From assembly GCA_030632085.1 (NCBI GenBank), contig DAOVJY010000005.1, forward strand, positions 37,476-101,475: a stretch of 64,000 nt of DNA. The letters run 5' to 3'. Made by a program: the position numbers and the translations under genes. Positions 9,664 through 31,990 of the stretch are shown piece by piece (the first letter of the stretch is position 1; each line of letters starts with the position of its first letter). The notes under the pieces are model-generated. The model saw only the letters and a list, made by a program, of their open reading frames with translations. It was not told the DNA's origin and did not search any database. The stretch comes from Candidatus Omnitrophota bacterium (GTDB taxonomy: Bacteria > Omnitrophota > Gorgyraeia > JAGLLT01).

Positions 9664-12600
9664 TTATTGTATGTTTTTAATATATGTTTTATTTTCTATT
9701 TTAATTTTCGACGGTAAAACCTTAAACATTAAATCACCGTCAATTAAAGCTGCCGGTTTTCCGTTAAGTGTTATTATTTTATCTTTCAATTCATCAGGCA
9801 AAGGAATTATAAATCCTTTTGGCGGTTTTGCCGCGCCATTTAATTCAATACTTATGATGTTGTCTTTTTCTGTAATACTATAGGATATATTTCCATATAG
9901 GGTGGGTAGATCTTTTACAAAAACTCCCTCACTAAACCAAGCGAGGTCAACCCCTGCAGCTAAAATAAGTTTGCCTTCCAGTTCATAGGCAAATATAGTC
10001 CTGACCGCGCTTATATAACCTGTACCGACCCAGGTGTGGGGCATGTCTCCTATATAAGAAGGAGCCCTGTTTTTAGCATGTACAACTTCCGCCATATGAT
10101 TCCAGGCATAAGGCCGAACAGAATCTTCGGTAAAATATCTGAGCATTATTAATGCCTTGCCCCTATCTCCCATACGAATAAAGGCGTCTGCCGAGCGAAC
10201 TTCATAAGGTGTAAATGTAACCTCGCCGCCCGGTTTTAGGCGTTTAGTAAAATCATTAAAATATTGATTAAATGTATTATCTAAGTAAGGTTGCGGCAAG
10301 TAATTTTCTTCCCCACAGGCCATAACGGCTATAGCTGTTGAAGTAGCATCAAAATCACCAAACTCCACACAGCCCGGTATATACTTTATGTCATTGTCCT
10401 TTATAACCTGCTTAATAGAAGCGTAAATATCTTTTCTAAAATCTTCTACTTCTTCTTCGAGCCACTTCGCGTTCCTCTGATCATTCATTAATTCAGCTAA
10501 ATACAGGCCATCTTTGAATCCCCTTAATATCCAAAAATCATCCCAATAGCTGTGTTTAGCCGGAAAATAACCCTCGTGGCTGTTAGACAACGGAATAATG
10601 CCATAATAAGCTTTCTTCGCGGGATCGTTTATATATTCCGCGGTCATACGCTCTCTTCTAAGCTCTCTTGAAAATTCAAGCGCCTTGATCACTTTAGGAT
10701 AAGCCTGTTTTAGATAATCATAATCATGCGAGAAGTCCACATATTGCCTTACAGCAAAGACAAATTCTCCCTGAGCATCATATTCCTGGCCTTCACCGGT
10801 TTTATCCGGATTGAAGCCTACAGGATGCCCCCCTTCAAAAAATATAAAAGGTACATACCCATTATTGGCCACATGCGGGGTAATGGCATCAAGCCAGCTT
10901 TTAACTTCATCAATATAAGCCATGCGCAACAAAGCAACGCTGGTCATAGCTCCATCTCTCATCCAAGAGTGATTATAATTTCTGGCACCCGGTTTAATCC
11001 AGGGGCCATCCTTATTTAGAAGAACATAAGCAATGTTAGTTTTCATAACATTTATAAGCCGTTCTTCCGGAATATCAATGGTAAATTTACTCAATAAATT
11101 ACTCCAATAGCGTCTTTCTTTTTCCATTTCCTTTTTAAAGAATCTGTCAGGATTTGCCGCTATTTTTTCAAGCAGTTGATTATTGGAACTCAAAGGAAAG
11201 ACTACAATCACATCTTTATAGCTTCCGGGTTTTAAATTGATGTCGTAAACCGCGCCAAAAGATACCCTGCCCTCGCCGTCTGAAGCTGTAAGCGAAGACG
11301 GTACTTTTCCTTTTTCAAGATAAGAAATAATATCATCGTTATCAAAATTAACAGCTCCCATTTTTTGAGGCTGTGTTACCAAGAAACATTTAGCTTCCCC
11401 GTTTACTTTTATGAGAGACTTCTTATCCCTCTTGATACATATGGCCTCTTTTATGGGGCTAAAACCGCCCCTTTGCCAAATTGGATTAACTTGTATGGGC
11501 CTGGCGGCTAAAGCTAATTTGGCCCGTAAATCATTCTTCTTCTTGTTGGTTAGTCTGTATCTTACCGCCGTATATGCTTCTTTGGGCTCACCAAAAGATA
11601 TAAGCTGAATATTAAGATTCCAATCATTATTCTGCCAGCTTACCCAGGGAAGAGGTAAGATTTTATCTATCAATCCCTGGCTGCACTTACAATCCTCCGC
11701 TGTATACAGCTTGTTATCCGTATAAATAAAAGGCATAACGCTAAATCCTGATTTATATGGTTCAATGGTGCCTGTTTCTGTAATGAGGCTTTCTTCGTCG
11801 CCATCAACAACTCCGGTTATAGTCCAAAATTCCTGAATACGCCGCAACCACATAGGATAATAGCCAGGCTTGGCATCTTTGGCAACCGCCTGATATTCTT
11901 TTAAAGCCGTAGCTTGTTCTTCTTTACTTTTTAACTCAATTTCAGCTAATTGAAACCCTCCTGATTTTTCATTTGGCTTAAGACAATTAATACGTATATA
12001 TTTAACCGGTTTAGCTGAAAAATAAACCCAGTCTTTATTACCATTTCCCTTTTTTGTCTTAAATGCTTCTGCCCAATTTTTACCGTCTTTTGATATATCA
12101 ATTGAATAACTTTTAGCGTAATTATCCAACCAGAGAAGCTGCAGGCCCCCAATTGTTACTGTTTTGGGTAGTTCAAAAGTAATAACGGCTTTATCTTCCC
12201 GGCTTTGCCAATAACTGCTTTTGTCGCCGTCCATAGCAAGCTCGGCAAAACTGGCCTCTGTTGTATTATCAGCCTCTGCCCGAGGGCCATTAGAGCCTTC
12301 ATGAAATTCAATTTCCCAGAATGAAAAACCCCAACCTGTTCCTCTTTGGATACCATTAAAACGCAAACTTTTTACCAATTGGGGCGTAAAATAAATAATA
12401 TCTGTATTGCCGTCGCCATCTTCCGTGCTATAAACAGTTTTAAATTCTTTTCCATCTTCAGATACATCTATTTCATAAATTTCACCATAAGCTGTTTCCC
12501 AGTGGAGCGTTAGGCCGTAAAGCTCTTTGGCTTTCGGAAAATCTATCTGCCAATACTGATCATCTTCAAAGGAGCTGCTCCAGCGAGTACCATAATCGCC

Positions 12601-13110
12601 ATCTACCGCCTTCATTGGGCCCATGTCACCGGCACCCGATGATGCCCCTATAACTGCTTTTTTTGGAGGTTCTTTATTTATGGCAACTTCCCAGAGAGAG
12701 TTGCCCCATTCAGTAGCTTTTTCATTAAAAACAATTTTTACATATTTGGCTTTTTGAGGAAGATTAAAGACAATGATTTCCGAAGCTCCGGATCCTTCTG
12801 TCTGATGATGCGCGTCTATCCAATTTTCAGCATTATTAGATAAAAAGATATTGTAATCCTTAGCGTAAGCCGCCTCCCAGTACAATAAAATGTTTTTTAT
12901 TTCTTCTTCCTGCCCTAAATCAATTAGAAGCCATTGAGGATTTGAAAACTCACTGGCCCAGCGCGTTTGTAAATCGTTATCAATCGCTAGCGCGGCTTTG
13001 AAATCTTTTTCGCTGGATGAAGCGCTTATCTGCCACTCAGCGGCACTTGCCGCATGAAAACAAACAACCGCGCAAATAATTGTTAAAACTATCTTCTTAA
13101 TAATTCCCAC
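9664..13110 (-). CDS. Third paralogue: secreted protein with three F5/8-type-C domains and (alpha/alpha)6 glycoside-hydrolase-like domain
   Basis: Three discoidin-like repeats (ALAIDNDLQTRWASEF, MKAVDGDYGTRWSSSF, ELAMDGDKSSYWQS); C-terminal HSWMRDGA and YWDDFWILRGF motifs shared with the other two paralogues. Confidence 0.6.
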   Translation of the reverse strand: MGIIKKIVLTIICAVVCFHAASAAEWQISASSSEKDFKAALAIDNDLQTRWASEFSNPQWLLIDLGQEEEIKNILLYWEAAYAKDYNIFLSNNAENWIDAHHQTEGSGASEIIVFNLPQKAKYVKIVFNEKATEWGNSLWEVAINKEPPKKAVIGASSGAGDMGPMKAVDGDYGTRWSSSFEDDQYWQIDFPKAKELYGLTLHWETAYGEIYEIDVSEDGKEFKTVYSTEDGDGNTDIIYFTPQLVKSLRFNGIQRGTGWGFSFWEIEFHEGSNGPRAEADNTTEASFAELAMDGDKSSYWQSREDKAVITFELPKTVTIGGLQLLWLDNYAKSYSIDISKDGKNWAEAFKTKKGNGNKDWVYFSAKPVKYIRINCLKPNEKSGGFQLAEIELKSKEEQATALKEYQAVAKDAKPGYYPMWLRRIQEFWTITGVVDGDEESLITETGTIEPYKSGFSVMPFIYTDNKLYTAEDCKCSQGLIDKILPLPWVSWQNNDWNLNIQLISFGEPKEAYTAVRYRLTNKKKNDLRAKLALAARPIQVNPIWQRGGFSPIKEAICIKRDKKSLIKVNGEAKCFLVTQPQKMGAVNFDNDDIISYLEKGKVPSSLTASDGEGRVSFGAVYDINLKPGSYKDVIVVFPLSSNNQLLEKIAANPDRFFKKEMEKERRYWSNLLSKFTIDIPEERLINVMKTNIAYVLLNKDGPWIKPGARNYNHSWMRDGAMTSVALLRMAYIDEVKSWLDAITPHVANNGYVPFIFFEGGHPVGFNPDKTGEGQEYDAQGEFVFAVRQYVDFSHDYDYLKQAYPKVIKALEFSRELRRERMTAEYINDPAKKAYYGIIPLSNSHEGYFPAKHSYWDDFWILRGFKDGLYLAELMNDQRNAKWLEEEVEDFRKDIYASIKQVIKDNDIKYIPGCVEFGDFDATSTAIAVMACGEENYLPQPYLDNTFNQYFNDFTKRLKPGGEVTFTPYEVRSADAFIRMGDRGKALIMLRYFTEDSVRPYAWNHMAEVVHAKNRAPSYIGDMPHTWVGTGYISAVRTIFAYELEGKLILAAGVDLAWFSEGVFVKDLPTLYGNISYSITEKDNIISIELNGAAKPPKGFIIPLPDELKDKIITLNGKPAALIDGDLMFKVLPSKIKIENKTYIKNIQ

Positions 13111-13203: not shown

Positions 13204-14163
13204 TTATCTCACAAAGATGTCATACCCTCTTTGAGGAGGCTGCTTTTCTTCTTTTGAGATTTTTGGCTTGGCTGTTTTCGTTGTCGCGGAAACTGATTTT
13301 GCTTTCGGGTAGGCTTTTTTTACTTCTGTTTTTTTGATTTTGGTTTTCTTTGTTTCATTTACATTGTTGATAAGCAGATAAGACCCTTCAAATGTATAGC
13401 CTCGTTCAATTGATTCCTCTTTTTTAGTTTGTTTTTTAGGTTCATTTGTTTCTTCGCGTTGCCGCCAACTTTTTTTAACAATTTTATCTTGTGCTGATTT
13501 CTCTACATTTTTTTGGGAAGTATACTTCGGTTTATCTTGTGTTTCCTTTACGTCATTAACAACTAAAGAGGAACCTTCAAATACATATCCTTTTTGAATT
13601 TCGGTTGTTTCCGGTTTGGGCATTCTTGCGCGTTTAATCTTTTTAACCCTGGGTATCTTTTTTGCTTTAGGTTGTTTTTGTGTTTTGATTTGTTGCGCCG
13701 CTTTTTTTGTTTCTTTCGTTTCTTTCTTCGGAGCCGCCATCAAATCATAACCTCTTTTAATCTCGGAGCCGCTATCGGTTTTTTCTATTCTCCGGGTTTT
13801 CATTTGCTCTCCGGCTTTGCTGTCACTTTGGCGGATGTACTTTTTCATATTGGGATGGCTGGTTAAATCAAGGGCTTCTTGCCATTGCTCTCTGGCCTCT
13901 TTGAGTTTTCCCTGCTTGTACAACGCGTTGCCTTTCTCAAAATATAACCTGGCTACAGTTTCTCTTTTTTCGTTTTCTTTTGTTATCTTCTGATTTTCTA
14001 TTTCAAGATCAACCCTGTCAATGTTCCCTTGGGCCTGTTTGATAAGTTCTTTTAAGCTTAATGTATAACCGTCGTTACCATTATCATCGCCGCCCGCGAT
14101 AGCTAATCCCGCTAAAGACATGGTGAATATACTTATTAAAATTAAAGCTAATATCTTTTTCAT
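13204..14163 (-). CDS. Secreted Lys-rich protein with TPR-like segment and internal RGY-x-FEGS repeats
   Basis: Signal peptide; repeated RGYDL / KGYVFEGSSLVVNDVKET / RGYTFEGSYLLINNVNET / RGYDIF units. No family assignment. Confidence 0.4.
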   Translation of the reverse strand: MKKILALILISIFTMSLAGLAIAGGDDNGNDGYTLSLKELIKQAQGNIDRVDLEIENQKITKENEKRETVARLYFEKGNALYKQGKLKEAREQWQEALDLTSHPNMKKYIRQSDSKAGEQMKTRRIEKTDSGSEIKRGYDLMAAPKKETKETKKAAQQIKTQKQPKAKKIPRVKKIKRARMPKPETTEIQKGYVFEGSSLVVNDVKETQDKPKYTSQKNVEKSAQDKIVKKSWRQREETNEPKKQTKKEESIERGYTFEGSYLLINNVNETKKTKIKKTEVKKAYPKAKSVSATTKTAKPKISKEEKQPPQRGYDIFVR

Positions 14164-17100
14164 TTCTCCCCGCTCCTTTGTATTTCATTTATTATATTCT
14201 GCCAGAGCTTTCGAGCATCTTCTAATCTTCCTTCCCGGCAATATTTATGGGCTAGCTCGTCTTGTTCTTTTAACTCCCGCTCAAAACAGACTTTCTCTTT
14301 AACATAGTCCTTTTCCTGAATATATAAAGCTCTGGCTTGATTATACACCTGAGCGTAAAGCAGCCTGGCCTCTTTTAGGTAGCCGTCTTTTTGTAATTGT
14401 TTGGCTTTTTTAAGTTGGCTATTAAGTTCTTTAATTAGAATATCGTTTTTCTCGGCGCGCTCAAAAGCCCACTTATCTATATCTTTCCTGAGTTGTTTCT
14501 CTTTGGACTTATCTTTCTCTCTCTCTGACCTGTCGTAGAACTTACCTGTCACCCTGATAAAAGGCCCATGAGATGTGTAATCAAGGTGGGTTAAGTCGTC
14601 ATTAAAGTCGGTAAAGTTATAACCCAGGCCTAATTCGGCGTAGGGGCCGATTTGACGACTGATCTCCAAGAGAGCGCCTTGTTTGTAATCTTTGGCTTGC
14701 TTTTGTTTTAAGAACCTGTATTCGGCTCCTATTTTCCAGTTGTTATCTACAAAATAGTTTAGCCTGTTGACACTTAAAAAGGTCTGGCTTTCGGTAAAAT
14801 CAAAACCTGTCACTCTTTCATCAGTCATTTTAAGGGCTACTTTTTCTACCAGCTGCCATTTTCTCGATAAGTCATAGGCGCCCTCAGCAGCTATAACATG
14901 GGCTTTTTCTTCTTCTATGTTTTCATAGTCATCCTGTGATGAAGGTGAATCATTCCTTAAATATGTATATTTACTAAAGAAGTTCAACTTATCACAGGTA
15001 ACCGGCCTGTAAGCGGCCGCTAAAGAAAATTCCTGATAGAGGCCTTGTCTGGTATCTGCCGTGGTGTTATCGCTTTGAGACAGATTCGCCTTGGCGAAAA
15101 GAGTCGTGTTTTCGTTGGGTTTTAACTCTAGGGCATTATAAGAGAGATACTGCCTGGCATTCTCCCGGGACTTATCAACTCTCAATTCCAGTTTACTGGA
15201 GGCTTTAAACCAGTCATTATCAACATAACTTCCGCCTAAACTTATAGCGTTTCTTTTTGTTTGGGTGCCGTCTAAGTTTTGAACCTCGCCGCGCTCAAAT
15301 TGAACAAAACCGGCGGCCTTATCATTAATATCACCTGATAAGCCGAGGATATTAGTATTGGTCTTTTCGCCTTCTAATAAAGATTTTTCTTCTTCCATTT
15401 TGAATTCCATGCCGTTTTCAAATTTTCTTTTCGTTCCGGTAACCTGAGAATATTTTTTACCTTCTAACTCATCGTGGGAGACGGTATAGGTGTGATATAT
15501 CTCATCGCCCTCATCGCCTTTGGCCCGGGTAGTTAAAGAAAAACTATTATCGGTAGATGAGCTGCCGAAACGGCCTATGGCATAGTCACCTAAAACCTCT
15601 AATTTATCAGTTATGTTATAACTGGCGCCCAAGTTGGTAGCCGCGCCCTTGGTGCCCAGGGCCTGTTTAGCCCTTAAGGTCAGGTTTTCATTTATTTTAG
15701 TTTGGATACCGGCCGTTGTCTGGTTGTTAGTCTCGCCCTTCAGGGTGGTTTGCTGCCCCAGAGATAAAATAACATCTTCGGTTAATTTATAATCGGCCTT
15801 TAAAGCCAGAAGGTCTATGTCCGCGTTAGATTCAGACTCATAGGCGGCAATAACGCCTTCGGCTTTCTGGTGGCGGTATTCGCCGGTAAATTTTAATTTT
15901 TCTAGTTTATGAGTAATCTGAGCTGATGTAGTCTGGGTTTTATTGGCGCCTACCTGCAGGGAGCTTTGAGCGTTGCCGCCATCTATGAGCTCCTGGGTAT
16001 CATGGCGTAAAGCAATGTGGGTATTATCCGTCAGGTTATAAGTTAATTTACCACCGGTAAGCTCTTTACCTTGTTCCTGCGCGGTGCTTATGGAAGAAAA
16101 GTTATCTTCAACTTTCTTATAATAAGCCTCAAGGCCCAGATCTTTGATTATATAGGAACTTAAACTGAGGCCATAGGCTCTTCCTCTGGCGGCTTCATCG
16201 CTTAGAAGCTCGCTAAAAGAAAGGCCGCCATCGGTAGAGATATAGCTGGATAGTTCTTTCGAGCGGCTTTCGGCGTATTCGGCGGTAATGGTGGTTTTAT
16301 CGCCCAGCCTCAAAGAAGCGTCTGTGCCGGCTAACTGATAGTTGTTGTCCACCTGTTCTTCTTTAACATAGGTACCGCCCACCGAGAGATAGTCGCCCAG
16401 CGCCTGTTCAACGCGGCCGCCATAAATACCTCTGTCATATTTGTCTTTTGTTTCATATTCATAGTCTACAGTTACATAGACGGGATTACCGTTAAGTAAA
16501 TAGTTTGAGATAATAGTATCTGACTCGGTTATATGCGATATTGGCTGCCAGAAGATAATCCGGCCGTTATCATAATCTATCTCATAGTCAAAACCTTCGT
16601 CCTGCTCCATAGCGGCCAGAACAAGGCCGCTTATCTTGTCTCTGACTTCAATGGTTATCTTTTCAGACCCCTCTATAACTCTCTTATGTTTAAGGTAGAA
16701 TAAGGAGCCGCCGGTCCCTAAAAACTCAACGTGGGCCGCTTGCTGCTGAGCCCTGGCCTTAAAGGCGATTAAATGGGTTAACGGTTGTCCGAACTTAGTT
16801 TTAGAAACTGACTCATAGTCTAACTTGGCGCCATAGAGGCTGCGTTTAAAGCTCGCTATATCGGTATCGGTAAAGTCGATTACATAATTGCCCCAGGTAA
16901 ATGAAGACTTATCCCATTCAACTAATAAGTAGAGAGCTCCCTGGGTTTGGGTGGCTTGATAATCAATAGTTGAGGTATCTCCATAAATTGGGTAATATTT
17001 ATCCGGATCTAAATTGCGGAAGAGTTCTTTTTGTTTGCGGTCTGTGTCCAGACTTGAAGTGATTAAAAACTTGCCCAGGATTTTGCCTTTTAGATAGTAG

Positions 17101-20100
17101 GCCAGTTTGCCTTCAGACCAGAAGCCTTCCTGATACTTATCGTCATGCCGGATGGGCTCTATGCTACCGGAATGGAAGGTGTAGCCCGCCTTGGCGTCTC
17201 CCATAGCTATAAAGAAAAGATAGCTGTCGTTGACTGAGAGTTTTTTAGTGGTAGTTACCTGTTTGCCGGCGGCATCGGTTCCGCTCACGAAAACTTTATG
17301 CTCTCCTTCCGGAATTATTAATTCATATTCGCTGTTTTGGTTTTGAGTTATAGAATCGGCATCAATTTTTTTTCCATCAACATAAATAACATCTACCGGG
17401 TTTTTGTCGCCTGAATAATTAATAACTTTTGTTTCAAAAATCTCTGTATTTTTAATTAAAAGAGTGTCGCCTTCAACTTTAATGGTTTGTTTCTTGAGAG
17501 AGTTTCCGGCGGCTTCTTTTTTAAGCCACTTGTTTTTCAGCTTTTCTTCTTTTGTTTTTGATAGCTGAGAGCTGACAGCTGATGACTGATAGCTGACGAC
17601 TGAAAGCTTCTTTTCTTTTGTTGTATCCTGCCTGCCATTTTTACCAGTTACGATCAAAACATATACATAATTCCTGTTAGATGTTAAATGCTGAACGCTG
17701 GATGCTTTTGCGTCGGACGTCCGGCGTCGGACGTCTAACTCTCCATTCCAATAAACGGGTTTATTTATATTAAAGCTGTCGCCTCTAAATATCTTCACTA
17801 TTTCTCTGGTGTCTTTGTCTAAAATCTCTATCCGCCATCTTTTAATAAATAGCGAATAATTCGTAAATATTCTAAATTCATAATCAGCTTTCAGCTTTCC
17901 TTCTTTTGTTTTTTTGCTTTTCCTATCCGCTATCCGCTCTACGCTATCCGCTATTTGCCTTGTGTCTTGTGTCTTGTGACTTATAACTTGTGATGGGTAT
18001 AAACTCACATTAAGCCTTGGTTTGGCCGTTTCCTTTTTCTGTATTATTTTTACTTGTGACTGGTGTCTTGTGTCTTGCCTGTGCCCGTCAGGGTATGACT
18101 TATTTTCAGTGTTCACCCCAAAATTTACCTTGGCCAGTAAACCGTTGGTTATATCTACAACAACAACTTTATCCGTAGTTAAGTAAGCGCCTTCGGGCAG
18201 GGTGCTTTCATCTAATCTAAGGAGATGCCTTCCGGGCCTTACGGCCGGAATATGATATCTGCCGTTTTTATCGGTGGTGACTACGGTGCCGTCCTCCATA
18301 ACAATCCGGACATAGGCAATACCTGATTCCGAATTGATAGATGCTGGATGTCCGATGTCCGACGATAAAGCCCCCTGCTTTCTGTTTTTGTCGGACGCTA
18401 TTTTTTTAGTGAGTTGATTAGATTGTTGGTTTTGGCGGCTATTTCGTTGCACAGATTCAGTAAATCCTTCGCCTTTCCATCCTGAAGATACTGAAGTCGA
18501 ACTGCTATTTTGAGCAAGGTCATTACTTCGTACAGGGAACCCCTTGCTTGATAAAGGAACTGAATAAATACTTTGTTGTGATAACAACCCTTCCCTTCCG
18601 CTATGTTCAACGGTACTGAAACTACCGCTCTCTGTAGTTGAGATATCATGCCGAATTATTCCTTGTTTGGAAAATTCTTCGTTATTTTGTAAATTTTCTC
18701 TGTTAGTTCCATCCCTTTCTGCCATACTTCCAACTTCTCGAATTGATACTCCATTTTTCGCTCCTTTTTGACATCCGACATTCGACGTCGGGCATCTAAC
18801 ATTATCTTGATAGCCGTTTTCATTCTTATCCCAAAAGACCTTACCGATAAGATTACCTAAATCAAAGAGAGGGTCGAGGGTTATCTTGACTGTGGCCGAG
18901 TCTTTATTGGAGATAACCGTCTCGTCGGAGTATCTGGCCCAGGCCCTGTTTTCATAGTTGCCCTGGGTAACGCCGGAACCTATTATCAGCTGGTACTTTA
19001 GGGTTCTGGTTGTTTGAGCATTAACTGTGCCTATGTCGAATAATAAGGCGGTTGAGCCTTTAGGGTTAACGGGTATATTATCCAGGATGGCTTTGCCGCT
19101 TACATACTTAAAGCCTCCCGGAATCCTGTCTTCTAAGAAGACGTTTTTAACATCTGTTGAGCCGATGTTCTTGATGGTGACGGTATAGGTGACGATATCG
19201 CCTATGACGGCCTCTTTTTTATTAGCTTCCTTCTTAATTTTCAGCAAGAGGTTGTTAGAGTCCATGGGGTGATCCATCTCTATGATAACCCCGGCGACGG
19301 TAAAGACCTCTCCTTTAGAGCCGGTGACTATCACCCTTCCCGTAGAAAAGGTTGTCTTTTTAGAAGGATATGTATACCCCGGGGCTTCCACGGTGATATA
19401 GAAGTTGGCGTTGGCGCATAAGAAGCTGTAGGCGCCATCGGTGCCTGTCGTCTGGGGGTTAAGGTCACTGCCGGCTATGTCTGTCCCCGGCACGCAGAGC
19501 GTACCGTTCTGATTATAGATAGTTACAATAGCGTTAGCTATGGGTTCGTTGGTGGTTGAATCAAAGACGATACCGAAGGGATCGGTGAAACTATAACTAA
19601 CAACGTCGCTGGCGGTACCGGCAACGGTAACGGTTAGATAGTTAGTGCCCTTTACAAGCGAGGAGGTATAGCTGGAACTAACTATGCTCCAGGTACCATC
19701 CGCGGCGGTAACAGTAGCTGCCACATCCGTTAAAAGCAGGTTGCCGTCGGCGTCCCAGGCTGAGACTGTCACATTTTGCCCCGCTAATCCGGAACCTGAT
19801 AAAGCGGGCTTTGCGCTGCTGATCTTATCTCCGTCAACAGGTGAAGTAATCGTCGGAACTTGATTGGTGGTGGTGGGAACTACTACTGTAACGTTAACAG
19901 GAGCGCCTAAAGTAGCCCCGACATCCGCCCTGATATTATTAGCTCCCGCGGCCAGAGTAGCGCTATAGTCGGCCTGCCGTACTATATAATTACCGTTGGC
20001 ATCGGCGGTTACCTGAGCAACGGTCTGATAAGCGGCGGCTCCAACCGTGCCTTTTATAGTTACCGTATCACCCGCTCCGGAAGAACCTCTTATGGTTGGC

Positions 20101-21605
20101 TGTTGGCCAACGGTCTTGGCCGCTTGAGGTGTTGATATCGAAAGGTTTTTAAAAACCCAGTTAGCGTTATTATTACCTGAATCGGTTGACGCATAACAGG
20201 TTGTTGTATTGGTGTTGGCATCCGCGTCTTTTACATCAACGAAGCTAACCGTCTGGCTGCCGTTAGGCAAAGTGATGTCCCACTTATTACCGGCTGAGGT
20301 TGAACGCAGGGTAACTAAACTTCCGCTTGTTCCGGTTAAGGTTAGGATGTTATCTACCGTTTGGGTGGTACCGACGGTAAAGTTAATCTGTTTGTTGGAC
20401 GTGGTACAGCTTAAGTTATAAAATGTAGAGCTTCCCGAAACAACTGAAGTCTGAGCGCTATCATCAAAGACAACCGTACCGCTTGAGTGAACGAACGCGC
20501 CGCCCGAACGAGCAAAGTTACCGGCAACATTAAAGTCGCCGCTTGGAGCGGTTAATGTGCCGCCGGAAATAACAACATTACTGTCGGCATTTATCGTGCC
20601 GTTTAGCGCATTCAATGTTCCACCGCTTACGGTAAGATCGCCGCTGGTTTTCAAATTTGAAGATGTTGTAAATGTTCCCGCCGAAACTGATAAAGCGCCA
20701 TGGTCAGTCGTTCCTGTCTCGAATTGATTTGAGATATTCCAGCCGCCTCCGGTCAGGCCGCTTAAATCTAAGGTGCAGACATCGCATTTAAAGGTTCCGG
20801 ATGAAGTAAATGAACCTGTATAACCACCGGTTACAGTAAAATCCCCCTGGTCTAAATCAAAGGCGTCAAGAATGCAAACGTTGTTCGTGGCGTTAAAGAT
20901 AACATCGTCGTCTGCGGCCGGGGCTCCATCTCCTACCCAGTTTGCCGCTGTAGTAAAATTGCTATTACCTCCGCCACCATCCCAGACATAAGCATCTGCA
21001 GTAAGTGAAGCATCATCAAACTTACCGGTTTCACTGACCGCAACGCTTCCAAATATAACCCTGACCTTAGCTGTATTTGCGGGGGCGGTTCTGGTTAAGG
21101 TTTTCTGAACCCATGAGGTAGTTACAGTAATGGTGATTTCATCGTTGGATATCTCAACGTCGCCGCTGTCAAACCAGATAAGCTTCATATAGAAACTGCC
21201 GGCGAGAACGCCGGCATCTCTTAATGTCCAAAGCGTATAAGTATATTCAACCCCTTCTGCCGCATTAACCTCCTGATAGGCTTCACCTGTTCCGCCAGCT
21301 ACGAAATCAGCCATAGCCATGCCATAGGTGCCGCTATGATTAGCCCAGTTTTCTCTTTGAGCACAGCCCGATCTTGTCCAGTTATCAGCGTCGGGGCCAA
21401 GTGGTGCAGGATTCTCAAAACCAGGATTTAACAGCAGGTTTCCTGTTGCCGCATAAATATTACCGGGCGCGAACAACAAAAACGCCCCCGCCAAAAATAA
21501 AAAGATGGGAACAATCCCCATCTCTCTTTTAATAGAAAACGCACTCCTAAAATAAGTTACTACCCTTAACAAGCGCCCGACAATCATTCTGCTTCCTTCC
21601 CCCAA
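14160..21605 (-). CDS. Giant (2481 aa) secreted multidomain surface protein: CBM-like N-terminus, Gly/Thr-rich beta-helix-like repeats, Ig-like and SdrD-B/CnaB-like domains, C-terminal beta-rich region and coiled-coil tail
   Basis: Continuous ORF; likely true start at the internal MGIVPIFLFLAGAFLLFA signal peptide; DUF11-like segment (VTYTVTIKNIGSTDVKNV); CnaB-like TDKNGRYHIPAVRPGRHLL. Contains in-frame repeat-derived low-complexity segments (see findings). Confidence 0.6.
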   Translation of the reverse strand: MGEGSRMIVGRLLRVVTYFRSAFSIKREMGIVPIFLFLAGAFLLFAPGNIYAATGNLLLNPGFENPAPLGPDADNWTRSGCAQRENWANHSGTYGMAMADFVAGGTGEAYQEVNAAEGVEYTYTLWTLRDAGVLAGSFYMKLIWFDSGDVEISNDEITITVTTSWVQKTLTRTAPANTAKVRVIFGSVAVSETGKFDDASLTADAYVWDGGGGNSNFTTAANWVGDGAPAADDDVIFNATNNVCILDAFDLDQGDFTVTGGYTGSFTSSGTFKCDVCTLDLSGLTGGGWNISNQFETGTTDHGALSVSAGTFTTSSNLKTSGDLTVSGGTLNALNGTINADSNVVISGGTLTAPSGDFNVAGNFARSGGAFVHSSGTVVFDDSAQTSVVSGSSTFYNLSCTTSNKQINFTVGTTQTVDNILTLTGTSGSLVTLRSTSAGNKWDITLPNGSQTVSFVDVKDADANTNTTTCYASTDSGNNNANWVFKNLSISTPQAAKTVGQQPTIRGSSGAGDTVTIKGTVGAAAYQTVAQVTADANGNYIVRQADYSATLAAGANNIRADVGATLGAPVNVTVVVPTTTNQVPTITSPVDGDKISSAKPALSGSGLAGQNVTVSAWDADGNLLLTDVAATVTAADGTWSIVSSSYTSSLVKGTNYLTVTVAGTASDVVSYSFTDPFGIVFDSTTNEPIANAIVTIYNQNGTLCVPGTDIAGSDLNPQTTGTDGAYSFLCANANFYITVEAPGYTYPSKKTTFSTGRVIVTGSKGEVFTVAGVIIEMDHPMDSNNLLLKIKKEANKKEAVIGDIVTYTVTIKNIGSTDVKNVFLEDRIPGGFKYVSGKAILDNIPVNPKGSTALLFDIGTVNAQTTRTLKYQLIIGSGVTQGNYENRAWARYSDETVISNKDSATVKITLDPLFDLGNLIGKVFWDKNENGYQDNVRCPTSNVGCQKGAKNGVSIREVGSMAERDGTNRENLQNNEEFSKQGIIRHDISTTESGSFSTVEHSGREGLLSQQSIYSVPLSSKGFPVRSNDLAQNSSSTSVSSGWKGEGFTESVQRNSRQNQQSNQLTKKIASDKNRKQGALSSDIGHPASINSESGIAYVRIVMEDGTVVTTDKNGRYHIPAVRPGRHLLRLDESTLPEGAYLTTDKVVVVDITNGLLAKVNFGVNTENKSYPDGHRQDTRHQSQVKIIQKKETAKPRLNVSLYPSQVISHKTQDTRQIADSVERIADRKSKKTKEGKLKADYEFRIFTNYSLFIKRWRIEILDKDTREIVKIFRGDSFNINKPVYWNGELDVRRRTSDAKASSVQHLTSNRNYVYVLIVTGKNGRQDTTKEKKLSVVSYQSSAVSSQLSKTKEEKLKNKWLKKEAAGNSLKKQTIKVEGDTLLIKNTEIFETKVINYSGDKNPVDVIYVDGKKIDADSITQNQNSEYELIIPEGEHKVFVSGTDAAGKQVTTTKKLSVNDSYLFFIAMGDAKAGYTFHSGSIEPIRHDDKYQEGFWSEGKLAYYLKGKILGKFLITSSLDTDRKQKELFRNLDPDKYYPIYGDTSTIDYQATQTQGALYLLVEWDKSSFTWGNYVIDFTDTDIASFKRSLYGAKLDYESVSKTKFGQPLTHLIAFKARAQQQAAHVEFLGTGGSLFYLKHKRVIEGSEKITIEVRDKISGLVLAAMEQDEGFDYEIDYDNGRIIFWQPISHITESDTIISNYLLNGNPVYVTVDYEYETKDKYDRGIYGGRVEQALGDYLSVGGTYVKEEQVDNNYQLAGTDASLRLGDKTTITAEYAESRSKELSSYISTDGGLSFSELLSDEAARGRAYGLSLSSYIIKDLGLEAYYKKVEDNFSSISTAQEQGKELTGGKLTYNLTDNTHIALRHDTQELIDGGNAQSSLQVGANKTQTTSAQITHKLEKLKFTGEYRHQKAEGVIAAYESESNADIDLLALKADYKLTEDVILSLGQQTTLKGETNNQTTAGIQTKINENLTLRAKQALGTKGAATNLGASYNITDKLEVLGDYAIGRFGSSSTDNSFSLTTRAKGDEGDEIYHTYTVSHDELEGKKYSQVTGTKRKFENGMEFKMEEEKSLLEGEKTNTNILGLSGDINDKAAGFVQFERGEVQNLDGTQTKRNAISLGGSYVDNDWFKASSKLELRVDKSRENARQYLSYNALELKPNENTTLFAKANLSQSDNTTADTRQGLYQEFSLAAAYRPVTCDKLNFFSKYTYLRNDSPSSQDDYENIEEEKAHVIAAEGAYDLSRKWQLVEKVALKMTDERVTGFDFTESQTFLSVNRLNYFVDNNWKIGAEYRFLKQKQAKDYKQGALLEISRQIGPYAELGLGYNFTDFNDDLTHLDYTSHGPFIRVTGKFYDRSEREKDKSKEKQLRKDIDKWAFERAEKNDILIKELNSQLKKAKQLQKDGYLKEARLLYAQVYNQARALYIQEKDYVKEKVCFERELKEQDELAHKYCREGRLEDARKLWQNIINEIQRSGEK
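17560..18000. repeat. Composite short-repeat block inside the giant ORF
   Basis: Degenerate tandem 7-mers (CAGCTGA, TCTTGTG, CGCTATC), palindrome CGTCGGACGTCCGGCGTCGGACG (17711-17734), and reverse complement of the TAGAGCG-GTAGCGGATAGG core seen at 36991, 54697, 56738 and 58590. Confidence 0.45.
18347..18797. mobile_element. Inverted-repeat-flanked ~450-bp insertion carrying the four-helix-bundle gene (MITE/IVS-like)
   Basis: Ends GGATGTCCGATGTCCGACG (18347-18365) and GACATCCGACATTCGACGTCGGG (18771-18793) are near reverse complements; the insert interrupts an SdrD-B-like domain yet keeps the host frame open. Confidence 0.4.
18398..18754 (-). pseudogene. Four-helix-bundle protein gene (TIGR02436 / 23S-rRNA-IVS-protein / Avd-like) with in-frame TAA at codon 33, embedded in the giant ORF in another frame
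   Basis: ATG at 18752-18754 with AAAGGAG RBS; translation MEYQFEKLEVWQKGMELTEKIYKITKNFPNKE*FGMISQLQRAVVSVPLNIAEG... carries the family's NIAEG motif; frame offset +1 from host ORF. Confidence 0.6.
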
Positions 21606-22066: not shown

Positions 22067-22921
22067 CTATTTGGTAAGGATTTTGATAAGACGATCAAGG
22101 TCTCTGTTGCTGTAATAATCAATTACTATTTTACCTCTTTTTCGTCCTTTGATGATTGAAACTTTGGTGCCAAGATTATTTCGGAGACTCTCTTCCGCGG
22201 CCTTTAGGTAGGAATCAACTTCTTTGACTTTTTTTGGCTTTGTTCCGCTTGCGGTATGTTTTTTAACTAATAACTCCGTTTCTCTTACGGATAAGCCTTT
22301 TTTTGCAATATTTTCAACAAGTATTATTTGTTTGTTCGCGCTCTCGATGGAAAGTAAGGCTCTTGCGTGCCCCATTGAAACTGTTCCACGTGAAACATAA
22401 TCCTGCACTACAAGCGGTAACTTAAGCAAGCGTAATGAATTAGCAATCGTTGATCTGTTCTTGCCTACAGCATCAGAAACGTTTTCTTGAGATAAGTTAA
22501 ACTCATTTATAAGGCGTTCGTAAGCGTGGGCTTCTTCTATAGCGTTGAGCTCCTGCCTTTGTATATTCTCAACCAAAGACAACTCTAATGCTTCTTTATC
22601 CTTAACGTGCCTAATAATAACAGGTGCCTTTGCTTGCCCCAGCTCTTTAAGTGCCCGATACCTTCTTTCACCTGCTATTAATTCATATTTTTGCTCTCCC
22701 GCGCCACTTCTTAAAGGGCGAACAATTAAAGGCTGTACTATTCCCTTCTCTTTTATCGATGAAACAAGCTCTTCATGCTTGGAGGCATCAAAATTCATTC
22801 TTGGCTGAAATCTGCCCGGCTCAAGCAATTTAATGTCAACTTCTTTTATTGTCTGTTGAGAGCCTTCTGCTTTTTTGGGTATTAAGGCCTCAATTCCCCT
22901 TCCAAGCGCTTTCTTCTTCAT
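22067..22921 (-). CDS. parB: Chromosome partitioning protein ParB
   Basis: ParB/Spo0J box GERRYRA, HTH region, adjacent to parA and parS. Confidence 0.9.
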   Translation of the reverse strand: MKKKALGRGIEALIPKKAEGSQQTIKEVDIKLLEPGRFQPRMNFDASKHEELVSSIKEKGIVQPLIVRPLRSGAGEQKYELIAGERRYRALKELGQAKAPVIIRHVKDKEALELSLVENIQRQELNAIEEAHAYERLINEFNLSQENVSDAVGKNRSTIANSLRLLKLPLVVQDYVSRGTVSMGHARALLSIESANKQIILVENIAKKGLSVRETELLVKKHTASGTKPKKVKEVDSYLKAAEESLRNNLGTKVSIIKGRKRGKIVIDYYSNRDLDRLIKILTK

Positions 22922-23178
22922 GTTAGGTCTCCGTAGTTATTAACAAATTATTCAACTAAACAATATTTGTAGTTGCTCTCATAAATAAAAAAAGGCTTAA
23001 CACAAATATAACAGCCAGTGCAATTGCTAAACAAGCAAGGCCATTGCCCTTTCTATTATTCAAAGACGTGTCGCGAAACGCTAAAACCGCAAACAAAAAG
23101 GCGAGCACGGCCTTCTCTGTACCCAGAAACTGCACATAACAACTTAAGCCTAAAAGTAGGGCAGCTATAGCAAAAGCA

Positions 23179-24021
23179 CTAGTCTCTTGTGTCTGGCGAG
23201 TCAAGAACTTCCTCCTGAGCTAATTGTTCATAATCACTTTCAATTGAAGCAGTTACGTCCATATTTCTTTGTAGAAACTCTTCTGTTAGCTCTTTATACT
23301 TCTCCGCCCCCACCGAACCCTTATCATACAAAAGGACCGGCTTTCCAAATCCGGGCGCCTCGCTTAACCTGATGTTTCTTGGAATTACGCTTTTAAAAGT
23401 TTTTTCCGGAAAATGTTTTTTGATTTCATCAATTACTTCATGTGTAAGCTTAGTTCTAAAGTCAGCCATAGTTAAAACAACCCCGACAATTTCTATTGCC
23501 GGATTTAAATTATTCTTTACTAAATCTAAAGTATTCAACAACTTACTCAAGCCTTCAAGTGCGTAATATTCACACTGCAACGGCACCAAGACCATGTCAC
23601 ATGCGGTTAGAGCATTTATAGTTAAAAGTCCCAACGAAGGAGGCGTGTCAATAATCGTATAATCATACCTCCGCTTTGCCTCTTCGAGAACTTTTTTAAG
23701 CTTGTATTCTCTTGCAATTGTTCCCACGAGTTCCACTTCGAGACCGGTTAAATCAATATTTGAAGGAATGATAAATAAATTAGGTAGGTGTATGTTCTTA
23801 ACGATGTTGTTTAATTTTGCCTTTTCGAGCATTAAATCATACAAGCTCTCTTTTACGGTTTCCTTGTTAACACCTATTCCGCTAGTCGCGTTTCCTTGCG
23901 GATCCGCATCAACAATAAGTGTTTTTTTGCCCGCAAAAGCCAAAAAAGCGGCAAGGTTGATGGCGGTTGTGGTTTTCCCAACTCCACCTTTTTGATTACA
24001 TATGGTTACTATTTTACCCAT
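23179..24021 (-). CDS. parA: Chromosome partitioning ATPase ParA/Soj
   Basis: Deviant Walker A KGGVGKTT; conserved ParA architecture. Confidence 0.9.
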   Translation of the reverse strand: MGKIVTICNQKGGVGKTTTAINLAAFLAFAGKKTLIVDADPQGNATSGIGVNKETVKESLYDLMLEKAKLNNIVKNIHLPNLFIIPSNIDLTGLEVELVGTIAREYKLKKVLEEAKRRYDYTIIDTPPSLGLLTINALTACDMVLVPLQCEYYALEGLSKLLNTLDLVKNNLNPAIEIVGVVLTMADFRTKLTHEVIDEIKKHFPEKTFKSVIPRNIRLSEAPGFGKPVLLYDKGSVGAEKYKELTEEFLQRNMDVTASIESDYEQLAQEEVLDSPDTRD

Positions 24022-24245
24022 TAAGTTTGTTTTGTTTCACGTGAAACATTTTTTTGAGGCTCCTTAAGAGAAACCTTAACTTTGGCTTGTTTTGACCCCT
24101 TCATACCAAAAAGGCCCTTGTTGCCTTCCACCAAAACTTTTACTTCTACGCAATCACGCTCAACTCCAAGCTTGAGGAGTGCTTTTTTTATCGCATCTTT
24201 AACTGTGACGCCTTCAATATCAATAGACCTCATCTTTCTATTCAT
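24021..24245 (-). CDS. Small Jag/KhpB-like RNA-binding protein
   Basis: Position directly downstream of yidC as in the canonical yidC-jag arrangement; short KH-like fold sequence. Weak sequence evidence. Confidence 0.4.
   Translation of the reverse strand: MNRKMRSIDIEGVTVKDAIKKALLKLGVERDCVEVKVLVEGNKGLFGMKGSKQAKVKVSLKEPQKNVSRETKQT
24033..24048. promoter_or_regulatory. parS centromere-like site
   Basis: Exact 16-bp palindrome TGTTTCACGTGAAACA matching the canonical parS consensus, immediately upstream of parA. Confidence 0.8.
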
Positions 24246-25897
24246 TATACATCCACCAATATTGTTTTTTCAAGCTTTTTTTGTATTATGAAGTGAGCCA
24301 GAGCCATTAAAGCGGTATTGACCGTCCAATACAACACCAACCCCGACGGCAGGCTATAAAAAATAAATCCAAAAACTATCGGCATCATAATCATCATTTT
24401 TTGTTGTTGCTGTTCCTGGGGGCTCTTTTCACCACTACCGCTCCTGGCACTCATGGATATTTTCTGCTGAACCACCATCGCAATCATCATTAATACAGGA
24501 AGCAGATTAAAGTTGTCGCCCAAAATAGGCAGCGTTCTGCCAAACGAAAATAATGCGTCCGGCAATGACAAGTCCTTTATCCATAGAAAGTTAGAACCTT
24601 TTAACATGGGAGATCTGGCCAGCGTCACATATAGAGAAATAAATATGGGCATCTGTAAAAGCATGGGTAGGCAGCCGCCCATAGGGTTTACATTGTGCTC
24701 TTTGTAAAGCTTCATCATCTCTGCCTGTAATTTTTTCTGGTCAGCTTTGTGTGTTTCTCTTAATTTTGTTAGGTGAGGCTGAACGGCCTGCATGTGCCTC
24801 ATTGACTTAACGTTTTTATATGTAAGGGGATACGTAAATATGTTTATTAAAATTACAAGGAATATGATTGCAACTCCGTAACTACCTGTTAAATTATAAA
24901 AAAAAGTTAATACTTTTATCAACAACTTACAAACAACATTTAACTTCCCATAATTTACAGCTTCGCCCATGCCGAGTGGCACCAGGTTTTTCTCCATCGT
25001 GGGGCCGGCATATAACATATACTGATGAACCGCCTCTGATCCACCCGGAACAATTACCGATTCAACGCCAGCACCTAAAGACCAGTCGTCTTGGTCCTTT
25101 GAGGCACCTTTGGACCACGATAAATATGTATAACTTATGTCCTGGCGTGGTGTTATGATGGCTGAAGAGTGTGTGTTTCTTAAAACGGCCCACTTGGGAT
25201 TTTTAGCAAAATTATATACTTCCCCGCTTTTGGCGGCTTTTATCGCGTCTTTTGTTTTAACCCACAATAAATTTTTTCCATCATAGCTTCCCGCGTTTAA
25301 AAAACGCTTGTCCAAAACTGATGAAAACTGCAGATTAGTTGCTGCTGCCAGATCATACGAAATAACTTTGTCGCTCTTTGATTTATTGGAGAAAGTGATA
25401 TATAACTGTATATCATAGTTAGAGTTAGAAAAAATAAATCTTTTTTTAATTTCTAAATCTTTGTTGGCTTTGCTTATTAATGTAACTTCGTTTTCTGTAA
25501 TTTCAACAATCTTAAATTCGACAAGCTCTTCGCTTGAGCCCTTTAAAATCAGCTCCAGGGTTTTTAGAGCGTTTGGGCCCGCTAGCAGCAGGGGTTTTTC
25601 TGAAAACCCAGCATCACCATTTCCTTTAATCCAGAGCTTATTTATCCCCGCGCTGGCGGTGGATAATTCCGCCTTAAGAAAAGCCGTTTTAATTTCAACT
25701 ATCTTTTCATCGCTCTTCTTTCTTTTTGCTGTTTTTTCTACTACCGGTGACTTAAGGGGCTCTACGGCCGTTTCTTCGGCCACCCTTTCGTTTGTGCTTT
25801 TTTTAGCCGGTTTATTTGTAGGCGTTAATAATGAATAAGCTCCCAAGATGGCCATGATTAATACAATGGCTGCTATAAATCTTTTTTGATCATTCAT
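24245..25897 (-). CDS. yidC: Membrane protein insertase YidC
   Basis: N-terminal TM, periplasmic domain, conserved C-terminal TM core (GGCLPMLLQMPIFISLY). Confidence 0.9.
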   Translation of the reverse strand: MNDQKRFIAAIVLIMAILGAYSLLTPTNKPAKKSTNERVAEETAVEPLKSPVVEKTAKRKKSDEKIVEIKTAFLKAELSTASAGINKLWIKGNGDAGFSEKPLLLAGPNALKTLELILKGSSEELVEFKIVEITENEVTLISKANKDLEIKKRFIFSNSNYDIQLYITFSNKSKSDKVISYDLAAATNLQFSSVLDKRFLNAGSYDGKNLLWVKTKDAIKAAKSGEVYNFAKNPKWAVLRNTHSSAIITPRQDISYTYLSWSKGASKDQDDWSLGAGVESVIVPGGSEAVHQYMLYAGPTMEKNLVPLGMGEAVNYGKLNVVCKLLIKVLTFFYNLTGSYGVAIIFLVILINIFTYPLTYKNVKSMRHMQAVQPHLTKLRETHKADQKKLQAEMMKLYKEHNVNPMGGCLPMLLQMPIFISLYVTLARSPMLKGSNFLWIKDLSLPDALFSFGRTLPILGDNFNLLPVLMMIAMVVQQKISMSARSGSGEKSPQEQQQQKMMIMMPIVFGFIFYSLPSGLVLYWTVNTALMALAHFIIQKKLEKTILVDV

Positions 25898-25915
25898 TCC
25901 TTAGTCTCTTTTCTT

Positions 25916-26161
25916 TTATTTTAGAGGATCGTATCCGCCCGCCGAAAAAGGATTGCATCTTACTATCCTTTTTACTGCCAACAACAAACCTTTGCTCAAT
26001 CCATATTTAGAAATAGCTTCGGTGGCATATTGACTGCAGCTGGGATAATATTTGCAGCACGGTGCTTTAAACGCTGTTAAATAGCGTCGATAAAACATTA
26101 TTATCAGCAAAAGTATTTTTTGAAATAGGCTACTAAATTTATTCATATTGCAGACAAACAA
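25916..26161 (-). CDS. yidD: Membrane protein insertion efficiency factor YidD
   Basis: YYPSCSQYA...RCNPFSAGGYDP motif characteristic of YidD. Confidence 0.85.
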   Translation of the reverse strand: MFVCNMNKFSSLFQKILLLIIMFYRRYLTAFKAPCCKYYPSCSQYATEAISKYGLSKGLLLAVKRIVRCNPFSAGGYDPLK

Positions 26162-26200
26162 CGAGCGCCTTTATAACGCCCGCCACTTTTATTTTTCATT

Positions 26201-26338
26201 TTATGCCGCTAGTTTTTTTCGGCCTTTTTGTCTTTTGGCCTTAATTATTTTTCGGCCGTCTCCGGTCTTCATTCTCTTTCTGAAACCGTGTTTTCTTTTT
26301 CTTTTCTTGTTTGATATTGGCTTTAAATTCTTTTTCAT
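26201..26338 (-). CDS. rpmH: 50S ribosomal protein L34
   Basis: Not in ORF track (45 aa). Minus-strand translation [45 protein letters not shown] matches the L34 pattern (KRKRxHGFRxRM...GRK). Confidence 0.85.
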
Positions 26339-26546
26339 AGTGCAACGATTATAACATAGTATTGTTTTAAGTCAAGTTTTTTTGCCTTATGTTTTAATGG
26401 GGATGCGGGGAGGTATAGTAAGTGTTTTTTTTATTTGAAAATTTTTCTTGAATAAAGTATTTGTTTTGTTATAATGCAACAAGATGGCAGGCATTAGCGC
26501 GTGTGGCCTGTTAATAACTTGTGGAAAACTTTAAAAAATTTTTAAT
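26339..26546. promoter_or_regulatory. oriC-associated region upstream of dnaA with dnaA promoter and DnaA-box-like sites
   Basis: Sigma70-like promoter TTGAAT(26448-26453)-16 nt-TATAAT(26470-26475); box-like TTTTCCACA (rc of 26520-26528) and TTATTAACA (rc within CTGTTAATAACTTGT). Gene strand switches from minus to plus here. Confidence 0.5.

Positions 26547-29187: not shown

Positions 29188-29191
<4 letters not shown>
28097..29191 (+). CDS. dnaN: DNA polymerase III beta sliding clamp
   Basis: Position after dnaA; three-domain clamp length (364 aa) and sequence character. Confidence 0.9.

Positions 29192-31990
<2,799 letters not shown>

Follow-up and report, generated by a model that had tools for sequence, protein, structure and literature searches.

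A four-helix-bundle gene cassette resembling 23S rRNA intervening sequences inside the open frame of a giant Omnitrophota surface-protein gene, and its relatives in unrelated coding genes

Introduction

Intervening sequences (IVSs) of 428-444 nt that carry an S23p open reading frame (ORF) are known from the 23S rRNA of Coxiella burnetii and Leptospira (PMC4990558). They are described as replacing the tetraloops of helices 9, 25 and 45 and are excised by RNase III at the terminal stem with no ligation afterwards; the structure of the S23p protein from Xanthomonas is described as a pentameric toroid (PMC4990558). Another kind of tolerated insert is represented by the Rickettsia palindromic elements (RPEs), which are summarized as selfish palindromes situated in-frame in unrelated ORFs and tolerated as an extra surface peptide (Ogata et al. 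2000 via PMC10969869); as far as this summary goes, they are about 150 bp long, occur in multiple copies in one genome and have a read-through ORF only, with no gene of their own (PMC10969869). The present study deals with an insert found in 64,000 nt of DNA from a Candidatus Omnitrophota bacterium (contig DAOVJY010000005.1, assembly GCA_030632085.1); this whole 64-kb stretch is called the window in the following, and positions refer to it. Here, a four-helix-bundle (FHB) gene of the PF05635 family, bordered by inverted arrays of 7-nt repeats, is located inside the gene for a giant surface protein, the frame of which stays open across it. We consider it probable that the insert belongs to a lineage of 23S-IVS-like FHB cassettes that has adapted to coding sequences and is translated through as a disordered loop.

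To our knowledge, PF05635 proteins are very common in bacteria, and their function as well as the reason for their location in rRNA IVSs have been open questions since the 1990s. A FHB cassette in coding genes makes the biology of such elements testable. In the literature searched, the coverage of which was incomplete, we found neither FHB cassettes in coding genes nor their inverted period-7/8 flanks described.

Results

The host gene for the giant surface protein of the Omnitrophota type (14160..21605, minus strand) is a single ORF open throughout that encodes 2481 aa. An insert of about 467 bp (18335-18801, minus strand) splits the A-B loop of a CnaB/SdrD-B-type domain, and the segment that is extra compared to insert-free orthologues (18333..18800, minus strand) comprises about 156 host codons. 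The host frame continues without any stop from GKVFWDKNENGYQDN through about 156 residues rich in Ser, Gly, Glu and Gln to SESGIAYVRIVMEDG, and the inserted hydrophilic peptide (grand average of hydropathy, GRAVY, -0.99) is predicted to be disordered. On the same strand, one base downstream of the host frame, lies the FHB ORF of 118 codons (18398..18754; start ATG at 18754-18752, stop TAG at 18400-18398), and the Shine-Dalgarno (SD) sequence AAAGGAG is found 6 nt upstream of its ATG (18761..18767). An inverted-repeat search located the two arms on the minus strand, the 5' arm (GATGCCCGACGTCGAATGTCGGATGTC...) at 18767..18801, which also emerged from RNA folding, and the 3' arm (..GTCGGACATCGGACATCCAGCATC) at 18335..18369, in which Tandem Repeats Finder called a period-7 GATGTCC array at 18347-18362. 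Both arms consist of degenerate heptamers (GTCGGAC/ATCGGAC) and are complementary over 35 nt at 71%, with a 12-nt core at 92%. Thus, the inverted-repeat-flanked FHB gene with its own AAAGGAG ribosome-binding site (18767-18761), which the first-pass annotation had proposed from the sequence alone inside a giant gene with a stop-free Ser-rich host frame, is present with all its elements at the expected positions, and the description of its ends can be extended by their organization in arrays of 7-nt units. The window contains only this one FHB copy. Inside the insert, neither a sigma-70-like promoter nor a terminator was found on the coding strand. A 10-nt direct repeat, TATCAATTCG (18330-18339 and 18739-18748), was considered as target-site duplication and rejected, as one of its copies lies within the FHB ORF, the repeat is absent from the related cassette at locus L001, and a 10-mer match in 750 nt is not unexpected.

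The FHB assignment was put to the test with profile hidden Markov models, for which codon 33 was masked. The ORF matched PF05635 with 129.5 bits (E 7.3e-38, cut-off 33.8) over profile positions 1-105 of 106 and TIGR02436 with 119.7 bits (E 6.2e-35, cut-off 24), i.e. far above the curated cut-offs in both cases. Moreover, the intact L001 copy, which shares 79-80% aa identity with the FHB of the window, is matched by the solved homologue 2gsc (XCC0516; E 2e-24). The initial proposal had left the type of the FHB gene as Avd/23S-IVS, from which only the second part can be kept. The bAvd protein is a four-helix bundle related to PF05635, and diversity-generating retroelements (DGRs) often target giant surface proteins, hence the gene could in principle be the Avd accessory gene of a DGR that targets the surface protein. 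However, it reached only 27.9 bits with the bAvd profile PF22296 (cut-off 40) and 27.7 bits with NF033474 (cut-off 80), no reverse transcriptase (RT) domain appeared in the Pfam scan of the 10 neighbouring ORFs, an RT-motif pattern had no match in the six-frame translation of the window, and the self-BLAST of the window gave no pair of template and variable repeats (TR/VR). With bAvd/Avd scores below cut-off and no RT or TR/VR found, the DGR explanation was rejected and is given a negligible chance. In addition, zero defence-system models of PADLOC matched, and Rfam at gathering score reported only two tRNA-Ser genes in the window, with no intron family and no rRNA.

Codon 33 of the FHB ORF is an in-frame TAA (18656..18658, minus strand), which the host frame reads as part of ATA-ATT (Ile-Ile); CGA (Arg) occupies this position in the intact homologue. 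Of the 34 long ORFs in the window, 16 end in TAA, more than in any other stop codon, so the ORF is really broken, a reassignment of this stop codon can be ruled out, and the window copy lacks an intact full-length FHB ORF. The host gene is recorded unchanged as one gene (P0001) in three assemblies, and an independent assembly in ENA is identical over all 7446 nt including the TAA, to which the note had first pointed. An assembly artefact is ruled out by this independent identical assembly, by the presence of the L001 copy in a second record (L002/L004) and by the origin of other embedded loci from separate metagenome samples. The FHB gene of the window copy is recently inactivated. With its TAA, its short and imperfect arms and a fold no better than that of shuffled sequences, this copy looks like the most decayed of the copies discussed below.

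The structural setting of the insert was analyzed with an AlphaFold2 (AF2) model built from the orthologue alignment and with Foldseek searches against the PDB. Directly before the insert, the orthologue alignment and the model place strand A and a Ca-binding-type loop (GKVFWDKNENGYQDN; 18801..18845, minus strand); the rest of the domain (SESGIAYVRIVMEDG...KVNFGVNT; 18108..18332, minus strand) follows past it, as delimited by alignment, AF2 and Foldseek. The flanks form a beta-sandwich with pLDDT >90, the best PDB matches being UafA, the SdrD B domains and CnaB2, and insert residues ~25-180 have a pLDDT of 41-53 without secondary structure. Because the flanks fold and the insert is disordered in the model, the insert sits in the A-B loop directly past the DxNxNGxxD motif. 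According to this model the host domain is of the CnaB/SdrD-B-type fold, in agreement with the split SdrD-B/CnaB-like domain that had been recognized at first reading.

Further copies were searched exhaustively by phmmer with the host-frame peptide, which matched six proteins; the DNA of five of them was taken (L013, L014, L015, L016 and L106), the sixth being P0101 with 185 aa. A word-index search with the same peptide missed even the parent protein and is unusable for such fragments. At all five loci, an intact FHB ORF with an SD in front of it is offset by one base from the host ORF. Another copy, L010, was found by a FHB peptide pattern search of genomes, i.e. independently of the frame. 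Together with the window and L001, this makes eight embedded loci in six unrelated host genes. L013 and L106 are hosted by a mini-intein that is itself part of a giant protein, and the cassette divides its Pfam intein splicing domain into two parts. The homing endonuclease domain usually occupies this position in inteins. In L010, a Spirochaetota RHS protein, the cassette lies between the YD repeats and the RHS core; the other hosts are a C39-peptidase-like protein (L014), a BREX-1 PglX fragment matched in two stretches (E 4e-127) and an unidentified 1019-aa protein beside an integrase. The PF05635 scores of six other embedded copies tested are 120-146 bits, a GGAG-type SD precedes the start codon in seven of the eight, the window's included, and the window FHB is the sole inactivated gene among them, the other seven being intact. 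As a separate observation, the PglX host of L016 (3001-4476) corresponds only to the C-terminal ~350 residues of the 1210-position BREX-1 PglX profile and has an unrelated gene upstream; it may be a gene fragment despite the open frame through the cassette.

Neighbour-joining of 78 FHB proteins made the copies of the window, L001, L014 and L015 mutual nearest neighbours although they reside in three hosts; L013 is placed nearby, L010 pairs with L064, and L016 is found elsewhere. All trees in this study are distance-based and rely on short alignments; the weak FHB tree fits one or few lineages that carry the stop-free frame along. The partner of L010 deserves a remark of its own, because L064 (907-1245) is a free-standing, intergenic FHB copy with GGGGTTN-type heptamer arms whose -1 and +1 frames contain 1 and 12 stops, respectively; this copy may once have resided in a coding sequence or may be able to do so. 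Among viral contigs, only three distant FHB matches were obtained, hence the cassette family is not phage-borne in the viral contig collection searched.

A statistically strong sign of an adaptation to coding sequences came from the codon choice of the FHB genes. The host frame equals the FHB frame minus one, and a host stop arises where a FHB codon ending in T stands before a codon starting with AA, AG or GA. At these at-risk third positions the window copy has T in 0/36 cases versus 22/81 elsewhere (Fisher p = 0.00017). The corresponding values are 0/247 versus 130/581 for seven embedded copies pooled (Fisher p = 8.7e-23) and 0/36 versus 20/87 for the eighth, L106 (Fisher p = 0.00078), whereas seven free-standing FHB genes did not display any avoidance (74/264 versus 145/581; Fisher p = 0.35). 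Each embedded copy has 0 host-frame stops at its 32-41 at-risk sites. Chance or base composition, or a host that is only a decaying pseudogene, could be considered as the reason for the open frame, because the overall third-position T content is lower in embedded (0.12-0.19) than in free copies (0.20-0.30), which lowers the stop number by itself. However, T is depleted at the at-risk sites only (0/247 against 22% elsewhere), the FHB-minus-one frame is open in none of 87 other FHB genes (0/80 metagenome loci, in which ~8-9 stops are typical, and 0/7 free-standing genome loci), and the +1 frame of the embedded copies contains 11-18 stops. A pseudogene is also at odds with a host domain that is conserved and predicted to fold. 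Hence, this explanation is very improbable, and the open host frame is a selected property of the cassette lineage, not a product of chance. The initial remark that an insertion keeping such a long host ORF open is unusual needs to be modified in this regard: the frame is open beyond chance, but the case is not a one-off and is common to a cassette lineage in several unrelated genes.

The comparison of related pairs revealed different constraints on the two frames. The cassettes of the window and L001 have a nucleotide identity of 0.79 and differ at 20, 8 and 47 sites in FHB codon positions 1, 2 and 3, respectively; dN/dS is 0.094 in the FHB frame, and the host frame has an omega of ~2. A dN/dS of 0.16 at a dS of 1.2 was obtained for L013/L106, the pair embedded in inteins; both FHB genes are intact and both host frames open. 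Judged from these two independent pairs, the FHB gene is under purifying selection. The host-frame peptide evolves freely, and the insert peptides of the embedded copies are strongly hydrophilic throughout (GRAVY -0.8 to -1.1).

These data also bear on the possibility that the cassette is removed from the host transcript like a rRNA IVS, by RNase III cutting and possible religation, in which case the insert would never be translated and its open frame would be irrelevant. Such a fate would be in line with the family resemblance to 23S IVS elements, which are excised at the terminal stem (PMC4990558), and with the RNA minimum-free-energy and centroid folds, both of which pair the flanks of the insert in the window as well as in L001; in comparison to shuffled sequences, the fold of the whole insert is better in L001 (z = -2.9), the window value being z = -0.29. 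However, removal would leave host-frame stops unselected, yet they are absent at 247/247 at-risk sites and stayed absent over a dS of ~1.2 in two independent pairs. Moreover, rRNA IVS excision proceeds without ligation (PMC4990558), which in a mRNA means that the message is destroyed, and zero Rfam intron families were detected in the window. RNase III may cleave some fraction of the transcripts, but the selected open host frame speaks against obligatory excision, and we regard removal from the transcript as unlikely.

Protein searches yielded orthologues of the giant protein with 38-71% identity, the named ones mostly from Omnitrophota metagenome-assembled genomes. Among the eighteen closest (P0002-P0019), 17 lack the insert and can be aligned contiguously across the junction, where a short loop such as QDKGEKGIPGV is found; fourteen insert-free ones were aligned residue by residue. 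This comparison and the profile search above were the two tests by which the first reading could have been refuted, and both turned out in its favour; the segment is not native coding sequence. The remaining orthologue, P0003 (52% identical overall; contig WFRI01000047, GCA_015486615.1), has a cassette at the same codon as the window, with an open host frame, an intact FHB ORF and CGA at the place of the TAA. Trees of the C-terminal region and of the junction domain place P0001 together with P0002, P0006, P0005 and P0004, and P0003 together with P0007-P0012, all of these partners being insert-free. As the insert-bearing orthologues belong to different host-gene clades, the cassette must have entered twice at one codon, or it entered once long ago and was lost at least five times. 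Synonymous divergence is saturated, with a dS of 1.19 for the cassette and 1.4 or higher for the host flanks, and cannot choose between two insertions and one insertion with losses. The insert-free loci L003, L097, L098 and L099 have short period-7 or period-8 arrays at the loop of the insert, which fit either footprints or landing pads. The empty site of the closest orthologue (L003) reads ATGTCCG-GCAT-CGGACAT, a 6-bp stem with tetraloop that is built from GACATCC units as in the cassette arms. Apart from this, a gene for a Y1 transposase (IS200/IS605-type, PF01797), a class of enzymes that act on hairpin structures, is found at 20383-21330 of locus L003, about 2.6 kb downstream of P0002, which lacks the insert.

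The distribution among orthologues might also suggest a one-off ancient insertion that has been domesticated by the host, such that the FHB or the loop serves the giant protein and is no longer selfish or mobile. The same site is filled in two diverged orthologues with saturated synonymous divergence, the FHB gene shows strong purifying selection, and only a single copy exists in the window. On the other hand, close relatives of the cassette reside in an intein and in PglX, RHS, C39-like and unidentified proteins, most giant-protein orthologues do without the insert, the window copy lost its FHB via the TAA while the host gene is still intact, and the host-frame peptide is not conserved (omega ~2). 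Domestication therefore has, in our opinion, only a small chance of being the correct explanation.

The arrays at the cassette ends are not a peculiarity of the window. Complementary flanks with z below -2 were found at 50 of 71 metagenome FHB loci with enough flank. Period 7 dominates in their flanking tandem arrays and period 8 is found less often; the mean best-window matches of 21 amount to 14.6 for period 7, 12.5 for period 8 and ~10 for periods 5, 6 and 9. Inverted period-7/8 flanking arrays also occur at eight FHB genome loci from other phyla (L005-L012) and at the Nostoc plasmid locus L104, while a second Nostoc plasmid locus, L105, has tandem arrays on both flanks without obvious complementarity. 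FHB genes in general are thus bordered by inverted period-7/8 arrays, the repeat unit of which varies by locus at a constant inverted arrangement. At L014, a cargo-less hairpin made of GGTGCTA-type heptamer arrays (915-990; z = -5.7) directly precedes the hairpin that holds the FHB (1041-1403), shares its unit type and is, like the latter, in-frame in the C39-like protein. The cargo-less hairpin of L014 and the hairpin at the empty site of L003, together with the tetraloop replacement by rRNA IVSs (PMC4990558), suggest that the arms may be derived from the target. By this analogy, the inverted repeats may have belonged to a pre-existing hairpin into the loop of which the cassette was placed.

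Several repeats of a similar kind were noticed in the giant gene itself. A ~400-aa segment, which is absent from the closest orthologue P0002, contains six further in-frame period-7 arrays (17559-18077, minus strand): TGAGAGC/TGATAGC (17559-17608), CGTCGGA (17711-17735), TCAGCTT (17884-17899), CTATCCG (17923-17954) and two CTTGTGT arrays (17959-17982 and 18053-18077), all on the minus strand and all encoding low-complexity peptides. The array at 17711-17735 forms, on the minus strand, a perfect in-frame 8-bp hairpin with tetraloop, GACGTCCG-ACGC-CGGACGTC (z = -3.1), with the unit type of the cassette arms, and looks unoccupied or vacated. Elsewhere in the window only five period-7 arrays were called, two of them together in one intergenic spot. 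Since a slip of one 7-nt unit in the giant-gene arrays shifts the frame, phase variation is conceivable. Furthermore, a 49-nt stretch consisting of a heptamer array and an A-rich tail occurs twice on opposite strands, 40 kb apart and with 90% identity (17906-17954 and 58591-58639), one copy inside the giant ORF and the other in an intergenic region with related AGCTTTC and AAACAAG arrays (58563-58654), which suggests a second small repeat element also in-frame in the giant gene.

With regard to its surroundings, the host gene, whose product combines DUF11/CLIPPER, CarboxypepD_reg and CnaB/SpaA-like domains with a long C-terminal region, is flanked by a MerR-like gene and a TPR gene and is close to a putative parAB-yidC-dnaA-dnaN-gyrBA cluster. 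Its vicinity to parB was confirmed in the window (22067-34460), and the ORFs past parB match in size parA, yidC, dnaA, dnaN and gyrB as annotated at the syntenic locus L003; the giant gene is probably situated near the replication origin, as is the orthologous locus L003. Other repeats of the window concern different genes. A 225-nt stretch with 87% identity (3914-4137 and 7144-7367) marks the starts of adjacent F5/8-type-C glycosidase-like genes, with shorter common stretches in a third paralogue (9664-13110). The tRNA-Ser genes with the anticodons TGA and CGA (37171-37382 and 56501-56695) are ~85% identical including ~100 nt upstream, and these upstream parts hold internal repeats of 33-53 nt.

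Discussion

Our analysis established the anatomy of the cassette, its absence from most orthologues, the site-specific avoidance of host stops, the purifying selection on the FHB and the recurrence in unrelated hosts, and all functional steps of the following scheme rest on sequence constraints. The element consists of the SD and a PF05635 ORF of ~118 codons between inverted 7-nt-repeat arrays, and it would enter the apical loop of a pre-existing heptamer-array hairpin. Synonymous third-position choice keeps the minus-one frame relative to the FHB free of stops, and with an insert length that is a multiple of three the host ribosomes could read on to a full-length protein, which would carry an extra hydrophilic, disordered loop of ~156 residues. 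The mRNA would be supplied by host transcription, and the FHB would be started from its own internal ribosome-binding site. Continuous ribosome traffic in the host frame might keep the arms, which are ~400 nt apart, from pairing and from being cut by RNase III. If paired arms were cut as in rRNA, a FHB-only RNA would be freed and the host message lost; the constraint on the host frame indicates that such a release cannot be the sole fate of the transcript. Finally, the window copy, with its FHB knocked out by the TAA, its terminal stem decayed and its host frame still open, might be turning into plain linker sequence.

Several points weigh against this view. Translation through the insert and internal initiation of the FHB are deduced from constraints on the sequence only, and the window's own stem is weak, its whole-insert fold being no better than shuffles. 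The single FHB copy within the window gives no sign of mobility in this genome, and no transposase, integrase or other mobility enzyme was found linked to the cassette. To explain the history of the locus, the cassette must have been gained twice at one site or lost at least five times, and the embedded copies are not cleanly monophyletic in the neighbour-joining tree from the 114-column alignment, with L016 and L010 placed elsewhere. Moreover, the search with the host-frame peptide that led to L013, L014, L015, L016 and L106 favours loci with an open frame. This bias is lessened, though not abolished, by the within-gene Fisher control and by L004 and L010, which were found independently of the frame. 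Taken together, we still consider a cassette lineage adapted to coding sequences and read through as a disordered loop the probable explanation.

A broader generalization can be put forward more tentatively, with somewhat less than even prospects: FHB cassettes might be widespread gene-carrying elements that settle in apical hairpin loops, be it of rRNA helices or of heptamer-array hairpins, and one lineage with a stop-free, hydrophilic overlapping frame might have colonised coding genes, where it is read through as a disordered loop. If true, such cassettes would join inteins and introns as a third kind of selfish element that carries a gene and resides inside another gene without disrupting it, and giant surface proteins would gain new linker sequence from them. 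The dual coding in a transferable cassette gives a clean and statistically strong signal, and it offers a route to disordered loops of ~150 residues in giant adhesins, inteins and defence proteins. It also points to a blind spot of annotation, because same-strand nested genes of the FHB type go uncalled and the host proteins show unexplained low-complexity inserts.

How does the cassette relate to described systems? With the DGR accessory protein bAvd it shares a related four-helix-bundle fold; the missed bAvd/Avd cut-offs and the lack of any detected RT or TR/VR set it apart, as do the flanking repeats, which are not a feature of DGRs. Like inteins with a nested homing endonuclease, it is selfish DNA that leaves the ORF of its host uninterrupted. 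In contrast to inteins, however, no Hint or splicing motif occurs in the host-frame peptide, for which disorder is predicted, the giant protein has no match to an intein family, and the cassette gene uses a different frame and remains outside the host polypeptide. As in overprinted genes, two frames of the same strand are constrained, and the synonymous sites of one bear the constraint of the other. However, the second frame is constrained only to be stop-free and hydrophilic and does not encode a conserved protein, and the overlap belongs to a transferable cassette instead of a fixed locus.

The closest parallels are the RPEs, together with intragenic miniature inverted-repeat transposable elements, and the 23S rRNA IVSs. 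Similar to the former, the cassettes are situated in-frame in unrelated ORFs with the host left open (six host genes, eight loci); in contrast to them, they have a gene of their own, the conserved FHB gene with its SD, and this gene and the read-through frame overlap in a dual-coding arrangement. RPEs occur in many copies per genome, and the 64-kb window holds one FHB copy. With the 23S IVSs the cassette has in common the PF05635 family, the size class (~467 nt here, 428-444 nt there), complementary stem-forming ends around an S23p-type ORF, with a stronger stem in L001 than in the window, the position in place of a small hairpin loop, the sporadic distribution among relatives and an ORF prone to decay as in Coxiella. 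It differs in that the window copy is located inside a protein-coding ORF and not in helix 9, 25 or 45 of 23S rRNA, in that its ends are arrays of 7-nt units, and in that selection keeps its second frame open, which has no counterpart in rRNA, where RNase III cuts the element out. Collectively, the cassette combines the anatomy of a rRNA IVS with the strategy of a RPE and departs from each in one defining feature, since it is not in rRNA and has a gene of its own.

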